NCBI RefSeq assembly: GCF_030013595.1
Contig: NZ_CP122768.1
Direction: 5' to 3' (one strand)
Length of the DNA: 64,000 bases
DNA from: Escherichia coli
GTDB lineage: Bacteria > Pseudomonadota > Gammaproteobacteria > Enterobacterales > Enterobacteriaceae
Positions 34,025 through 34,897 of the stretch are shown piece after piece. How positions within the stretch are numbered: position 1 is the first letter of the stretch; each line of letters starts with the position of its first letter. Under the pieces are notes generated by a model. The model had not been told where the DNA came from. It worked only from the letters and a program-made list of their open reading frames with translations, and did not search any database. Made by a program: the position numbers and the translations under genes.

Positions 34025-34897
34025 TTACCAGCGACCGGACGCGCCGCCACCGCCAGAAGAACCGCCCCCGCCGCTAAATCCGCCGCCACTTGAGCCGCCA
34101 CCGGAACCGCTGTTGTCTGAATGATAACTTCTACCAGATGCTTTTTTCTGAAGTACACATAAACAGGTAAAGACCATAATGGTGGTGAAAGTAAAAAAGA
34201 AGAAAAATACAGCAATGGAAAAAGTTTTATCGGAGAACAGGAATAAATCTAAAAGATAGATTGCTGAAATACAGACACTGCTTTTACATGCGCGACAAAA
34301 ATTACTGCCTTCATGAAAAAACCAGAAAGGGAAGAACATCACTGCAAATACCCAAAAAATAGCAAAGTAATAATGATCACTGGAAGACGCTGATTCAATT
34401 TCTGAAGGATTAGCCGGATATTGGTGTTGTGAAGTGAGTTGGTTATTCAAAGCGATTATAGCTAACTCTAATCCCTTAGCTAATTATTGTTGTTTAAATG
34501 CGGGTATCATGTTGCTACGGATGATATCTCCAGCCAGAGCATCGGTTACCTTTTCTTCCAGCCCATAACCTACCTGGATGCGGACAGTACGATCCGACCA
34601 GGCAACAATGATCAGTATCCCATCATTGCGTTTGGCATCTCCTAAACGCCAATTGTTAAAAACCCTTGTAGCATATTGTTCAATTGTCTCGTCTTTGGTT
34701 GTGGGAATAATTAATACAGCAATTTGTACTTGGGTATTATTGAAAATAGATTCTAACTTCCGCGTCAGTTCTTTCTTTTCTTGTGAGTTTAAGCTACTCG
34801 TAAGATCCGTAACTTGTTGCTGTAATTGTGGGACAATAGTTGGTTGGGCTGCAACAAAGGAACACACGAATGTGAATATTAGTATGAAATAGCGCAT
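34025..34897 (-). pseudogene. ygcG: ygcG (TPM-domain protein with Gly/Ser-rich C-terminal tail) interrupted by an in-frame TAA at 34484-34486
   Basis: Two ORFs (34484..34942 and 34025..34450) are in the same frame, separated only by one TAA codon; joined length from MRYF equals the 290 aa I recall for K-12 YgcG. Confidence 0.7.

Follow-up and report, generated by a model that had tools for sequence, protein, structure and literature searches.

A premature stop codon in ygcG is carried on a 6.4-kb haplotype shared by pig-associated Escherichia coli

The ygcG gene of the Escherichia coli genome considered here is interrupted by a single in-frame TAA codon, which raises the question of whether the gene has been inactivated, continues to function in two pieces, or has merely been misread. 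We analysed this gene in a stretch of 64,000 nucleotides of contig NZ_CP122768.1 (RefSeq assembly GCF_030013595.1), referred to below as the window, to which all coordinates apply unless another locus is named. The parts of the gene are as follows.

34025..34897, minus strand: pseudogene of ygcG with 290 codon positions, followed by the terminal stop; the orthologue of K-12 ygcG (b2778), which encodes a TPM-domain inner-membrane protein
34484..34486, minus strand: premature stop TAA at codon 138 of 290; the codon was AAA (Lys) before an A>T transversion at position 34486
34487..34897, minus strand: N-terminal fragment, still translatable, 137 amino acids; a signal-peptide-like helix (residues 2-16) and the TPM domain without its last helix
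34025..34483, minus strand: 3´ remnant, 152 codons plus stop; the fourth TPM helix (residues 139-155, with the invariant G142 and L143), a linker, three predicted transmembrane helices and a Gly/Ser-rich tail

Translation of the minus strand from 34897 to 34025 gives 137 sense codons, the TAA at 34486..34484, another 152 sense codons and the terminal TAA. This bears out the initial annotation, in which the N-terminal (34487-34897) and C-terminal (34025-34483) parts were placed in one frame, split only by the TAA. The joined length of 290 codons proposed there also holds, and equals the 290 amino acids of K-12 YgcG, whose gene occupies identical coordinates in the aligned locus. The interrupted gene is located between yqcG/queE and eno and is colinear with the K-12 gene across its full length, as is expected of an orthologue. 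Both halves are colinear with intact orthologues in thousands of genomes, at 95-99% nucleotide identity, and so do not represent a chance pattern of open reading frames. When aligned to intact alleles, the frame past the TAA is open, with no second stop and no frameshift. Codon 138 is AAA (Lys) in K-12, 98218, IAI39 and SCU-172 versus TAA in the window; the earlier guess of CAA or GAA as the ancestral codon was thus wrong, and the change is an A>T transversion. Besides the stop, the window allele has two private changes relative to these four intact alleles: a synonymous change at R103 (CGC>CGT) and Q196E.

How widespread is this allele? To count alleles in 5,426 complete E. coli genomes, we used 55-mers with the variant at their centre, such that every 28-base megablast seed had to include it. 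The TAA form was detected in 21 of these genomes and the AAA form in at least 3,652. All 21 carriers came from domestic pigs or wild boar:

CFSAN018748 (Denmark)
K_EC180
O139:H1 strains W13-16 and P15-25 (France)
EC556/571/581
twelve "ETEC" strains
HCP5S3_I2 and LCP30S3_I5 (UK)

W13-16 and P15-25 are O139:H1 ST1 edema-disease strains that were sequenced by both PacBio and Illumina (PMC8798679). Gene calls of exactly the 137-amino acid product exist on 114 public contigs, and the product is indexed in 182 blocks of a public protein collection, one contig coming from an ENA metagenome assembly. The RefSeq PGAP label for the identical sequence is 'TPM domain-containing protein, internal stop', and the pseudogene status of ygcG, flagged in these public records, is already known. 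A further substitution upstream of the stop, N129K (AAC>AAG, window position 34511), is present in HCP5S3_I2 (20001-20873 of its extracted locus) and LCP30S3_I5 and is missing in the window and the other 19 carriers.

The surroundings of the stop indicate how these genomes came to share it. The TAA allele is embedded in a longer segment that is nearly invariant among carriers.

29762..36200, no strand: haplotype block with the TAA allele, ~6.4 kb, from the relA 3´ end through mazG, pyrG, eno, ygcG, yqcG and queE up to the CRISPR array

A search with this block returned exactly the 21 TAA carriers at ≥99.9% identity, with the next genome at 99.2%; an intact precursor of the haplotype was not found in the 5,426 genomes, and the repaired K138 version of the allele was absent as an exact protein among ~15 billion proteins. 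SNP maps of the window against W13-16 and CFSAN018748 showed 0-2 differences from 29762 to ~36230. Left of the block, there are 10-17 SNPs per kb against both strains, and to the right there are 18-29 SNPs per kb against W13-16 at 37-39 kb and ~10-27 SNPs per kb against CFSAN018748 at 43-53 kb. CFSAN018748 and W13-16 are also mosaic relative to each other. The 10-kb flank at 24000-34000 is 100% identical only in HCP5S3_I2 and LCP30S3_I5; the other carriers are at 99.4%, no nearer than many unrelated human isolates. For the whole-genome background of the window, we used its near-twin HCP5S3_I2 as a proxy (~13 differences over 40 kb, CRISPR array excluded) and looked at two distant core loci. 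The other 19 carriers were absent from the best 40 matches to sucA-phrB (21 kb) and from the best 30 to kptA-gntP (11.7 kb). The 99.4% flank, the mosaic SNP maps and the unrelatedness at these two loci speak against a single clonal origin for all carriers.

Because the block is near-identical, while its flanks differ by 1-3% and the distant loci are unrelated, recombination appears to have moved the dead allele between pig lineages. In this model, the mutation would have arisen once, on a distinctive ~6.4-kb haplotype, and homologous recombination would have carried that haplotype into pig-associated backgrounds, at least three of which look unrelated: O139:H1 ST1 and its relatives, CFSAN018748, and the lineage of the window and HCP5S3_I2. 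Homologous recombination is the simplest explanation, on the sequence comparisons made here, for the sharing of this haplotype among pig E. coli. An alternative is that some of the carriers share ancestry and that their flanks were replaced later, which gives the same pattern; elsewhere in the same 40 kb, these pig lineages have further segments in common (40-51 kb of the window with W13-16 and 37-42 kb with CFSAN018748), in keeping with this alternative.

We favour recombination of an inherited allele. The analysis directly establishes that the stop exists, which codon it replaced, which genomes carry it, how the block is structured and where the stop falls in the protein fold; ygcG K138* is a pseudogene by nonsense mutation, an inherited premature stop that removes conserved parts of the protein. 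The full reading, that K138* (AAA>TAA) is a genuine inherited loss-of-function allele with a single origin on the ~6.4-kb haplotype and has recombined into at least three unrelated pig backgrounds, has in our estimate a probability of roughly 0.88. Of the two options that the initial annotation left standing, recent pseudogenisation is the one supported, given that carriers show 0-2 differences from one another over 6.4 kb and that the gene has no further disabling mutation downstream. New here is the spread of the haplotype by recombination among pig E. coli, a small but solid addition to what the public records contain.

We suggest that the allele spread neutrally or by hitch-hiking rather than by selection. 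In intact ygcG alleles, the TPM half has a dN/dS of ~0.23 and the membrane half one of 0.4-0.6, compared with 0 for the neighbouring eno, all values being based on small counts. The TAA allele differs from its nearest intact alleles at only 3-5 positions, too few to give a dN/dS test downstream of the stop any power. From these values, ygcG appears to be weakly constrained, and its locus is variable. It is conceivable that selection has nonetheless added to the spread, with ygcG inactivation or a linked variant in the block being favoured in the pig gut. All 21 carriers, in at least three backgrounds, are from swine, the haplotype is sharply distinct from every other, and independent hits to ygcG are known from other lineages. 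However, recombination requires co-residence, such that restriction to one host is expected under neutrality too; nearby segments are also shared by the same lineages, making the sharing not specific to ygcG; and intact alleles are under weak constraint. We consider adaptive loss unlikely as an addition to the explanation above. Slightly less likely again is the more specific proposal that the K138* haplotype is a pig-niche block selected into unrelated swine lineages, O139:H1 ST1 pathogens and commensals alike, with either ygcG loss or a linked change in mazG, pyrG, eno or queE as the target. If it were true, ygcG loss would mark host adaptation or even cause it. A host-association GWAS paper makes no mention of the locus.

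What would the interrupted gene produce? YgcG belongs to the TPM_phosphatase family PF04536 (TLP18.3/Psb32/MOLO-1). The joined protein scores 122.1 bits against the profile (cut-off 22.1) over positions 1-123 of 125, a better and longer match than that of the 137-amino acid fragment (E 3.8e-34, 117.8 bits, positions 1-108 of 125), and both scores are above the gathering score. In an AlphaFold2 model of the repaired protein, the TPM domain is predicted with pLDDT ~88-93 and contains strands at residues 29-31, 58-64, 93-99 and 104-110 and helices at 38-55, 72-83, 119-135 and 139-155. These four strands and four helices agree with the published TPM fold, a four-stranded sheet with four flanking helices (10.1101/2024.10.28.620569). 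The domain is followed in the model by a disordered linker, three hydrophobic helices (172-193, 199-221 and 224-254, predicted to span the membrane) and a Gly-rich tail. K138* falls between the third (119-135) and fourth (139-155) helices of the modelled domain. G142 and L143, which are invariant across a nine-sequence alignment, both lie past the stop, and the solved TPM relatives 5ANP (BA41), 7TBR and 2KW7 align with YgcG through residues 150-155. The encoded product, ending at residue 137 before the 139-155 helix and G142-L143, thus contains an incomplete domain.

Translation would be expected to end after residue 137, giving a signal-peptide-bearing TPM domain minus the fourth helix, the membrane anchor and the Gly-rich tail, with the remaining 152 codons left as an untranslated remnant. 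Since such a product has neither the fourth helix nor the anchor and tail, the normal membrane-anchored YgcG could not form. Loss of YgcG function is the best-supported reading; the 137-amino acid fragment is probably non-functional, judging from the truncated fold, and no Shine-Dalgarno is present for a restart. The YgcG family is described as being of unknown function (PMC10091555), and literature searches on ygcG and yqcG turned up no study of what YgcG does. Proposed roles for TPM domains are those of phosphatases or ATPases, or of assembly chaperones for membrane complexes.

The split gene could also remain in use, if the 137-amino acid TPM fragment acted in the periplasm, or if a C-terminal membrane fragment were made by re-initiation, or both. 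The initial annotation had pointed to a possible start for the second part.

34448..34450, minus strand: in-frame TTG, a mechanical ORF start only, with no usable Shine-Dalgarno

The codon and its ORF do exist: the TTG at 34450..34448, 36 nt after the stop, begins a 141-codon ORF. The downstream expression suggested for it, in contrast, gained no support from the sequence, as the best anti-Shine-Dalgarno pairing is -2.4 kcal/mol at ~20 nt upstream and the sole AAGGGA nearby is ~22-27 nt upstream. The downstream frame is open for 152 codons, the TTG is close enough to the stop that 70S re-initiation is conceivable, and a 104-amino acid C-terminal ORF was called once by gene callers. Yet an open frame is expected for so young an allele, with 0-2 differences per 6.4 kb, and for that reason says nothing about selection. 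Of the four helices of the fold, the N-terminal fragment is missing one, along with two invariant residues, and no other E. coli lineage retains a split arrangement, other truncations being scattered, rare frameshifts. Together with the TTG lacking a Shine-Dalgarno, these points make continued use of the two parts improbable, and we keep to loss of function.

Readthrough of the stop, whether programmed or by an ochre suppressor tRNA, would restore full-length YgcG. We found no support for this possibility beyond an A-rich context that is slippery in principle. The base 3´ of the premature TAA is T, and TAA followed by T is reportedly the context at which E. coli terminates translation most efficiently (Poole et al. 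1995). The stop is limited to one haplotype (21/5426) rather than conserved across alleles, and an Rfam motif search of the ygcG region detected no RNA element. Full-length protein by this route is very improbable. The interruption also does not have the features of a phase-variable locus, given that the change is an A>T substitution and that the adjoining A5 run has a one-base deletion in only 1 complete genome. Finally, an error of sequencing or assembly in a single record, with ygcG truly intact, was the other option raised at the outset and has in its favour only that a single-base difference is of a type errors can yield; it is excluded for practical purposes because the identical TAA, a substitution rather than a homopolymer-length change, recurs in 21 complete genomes from independent projects and several platforms and on 114 contigs.

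The genes around ygcG are themselves variable. Two further features flank it.

34911..35052, minus strand: yqcG, the small-protein gene that precedes ygcG in its transcription unit; an A-run (~35009-35013) has one A more than in K-12, which shifts the frame
33985..34014, no strand: hairpin between the convergent ygcG and eno genes, flanked by A/T runs; fold -20.3 kcal/mol, z -6.3

yqcG is an envelope-stress small protein gene whose deletion raises queE expression, and a sigma-S ChIP peak has been reported in the queE/ygcG intergenic region. In the window, the 46-amino acid yqcG ORF is frameshifted (PGAP marks it 'frameshifted'), and a 35-39-amino acid ORF (34911-35030) retains the hydrophobic C-terminal part. 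The same extra A is found in 98218 and SCU-172, both of which have intact ygcG, and so represents an allele class; a tie between the yqcG frameshift and the TAA is ruled out. The 33985-34014 hairpin is probably a bidirectional intrinsic terminator. It was missed in a simple consensus terminator scan of the eno/ygcG interval and became evident on direct folding. As ygcG ends the yqcG-ygcG unit and this strong hairpin separates it from eno, no polar effect of the stop is expected.

In O157:H7 LSU61 (1-2563 of the extracted locus) and LF82 (1-2670), the queE-eno interval contains three tandem TPM-domain genes in place of yqcG-ygcG. The third TPM gene of LF82 is a chimera, O157-like over its first ~80 residues and K-12-like in the rest. 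The queE-eno locus, as read from these comparisons, is present in at least two structural forms with mosaic alleles. In IAI39 and SCU-172, which have the closest intact ygcG alleles, an IS4 element is located directly downstream of ygcG (extracted loci 2419-3765) and the gene after it is not eno, being bamD in SCU-172. This suggests an IS4-associated chromosomal rearrangement with a breakpoint downstream of ygcG in these two strains.

Beyond queE, a CRISPR array at 36201-36749 comprises nine type I-E-like repeats (GAGTTCCCCGCGCCAGCGGGGATAAACCG), and a further, degenerate repeat lies at 37221-37245. The spacer at 36413-36444 recurs as a tandem duplicate at 36474-36505, and the spacer content is different in all three TAA-carrying backgrounds. 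The region at 52198-56015 contains cysH, then hok/sok (sok at 53208-53365), an IS4-family transposase (53532-54812) and iap (54978-56015), with no cas operon within the window, and the array near queE would accordingly be an orphan. The IS4 insertion (~53524-54861) is missing from the otherwise near-identical HCP5S3_I2. Elsewhere in the window, a full-length CsrB sRNA is found at 16721-17080 (Rfam RF00018, 382.9 bits), beside syd/queF, an ordinary and expected position.

The TAA together with its 6.4-kb haplotype could serve as a clean marker for DNA exchanged among pig E. coli, including O139:H1 ST1 strains, and might be used to trace recombination within that niche. The carriers are also natural ygcG knock-outs that could be compared with repaired strains to study the YgcG/YqcG envelope-stress locus. 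As an instance of gene decay, K138* carries little wider significance and adds another decayed copy of a gene that is non-essential and under weak constraint.

ygcG has also been inactivated in other E. coli and in Shigella. Truncations are seen at the K138* site, but these events are independent, lie on other haplotypes and are each rare. A one-base A deletion in the A5 run, giving a product that ends in ...KQQN*, is found in strain D10 (NZ_CP010157.1), the 1 complete genome of 5426 with this change, and on 31 contigs. A one-base C deletion in a CCC run, giving ...IPHLNNKN*, is found on 20 contigs, and both of these -1 frameshifts, located within a few codons of residue 138, end at an out-of-frame TAG just past codon 138. 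In one of the -1 frameshift products, P0013, the frameshifted yqcG frame is also fused to ygcG, for a total of 190 amino acids. PK8217 has IS5 and IS1 insertions, in yqcG and ygcG, and the Shigella flexneri ygcG allele is frameshifted. These cases give at most a hint that codon 138 is a frequent mutational hotspot. Compared with the other inactivations, the TAA allele stands apart as a base substitution and as the only one found in many complete genomes.

The nearest intact counterpart is K-12 YgcG (b2778, annotated as UPF0603 or 'YgcG family protein', 290 amino acids), which the window gene resembles in its site between yqcG/queE and eno, its length and frame, and 95.4% nucleotide identity. 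The two also have the same architecture of signal peptide, TPM domain, transmembrane helices and Gly-rich tail. The window allele differs from that of K-12 by K138* and at 35 further nucleotides, and yqcG, intact in K-12, is frameshifted in the window. Among solved structures, the best relative is BA41 from Bizionia argentinensis (PDB 5ANP), which aligns with residues 21-186 at E 1.3e-22 and in which a TPM domain is likewise followed by a hydrophobic segment and a Gly-rich C-terminus ending in GGGASG(G)W. ATPase/ADPase activity has been reported for BA41; at ~32% identity, this activity is known for BA41 rather than for YgcG, and unlike BA41, the window gene cannot give the last helix or the membrane part. 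A more distant comparison can be made with Psb32/TLP18.3, a PF04536 protein of photosystem II repair. The NCBIfam Psb32 match of 38 bits is weak and far under the 160-bit cut-off, so YgcG is not a member of that group; E. coli has no photosystem, and the fold alone is what the two proteins have in common.
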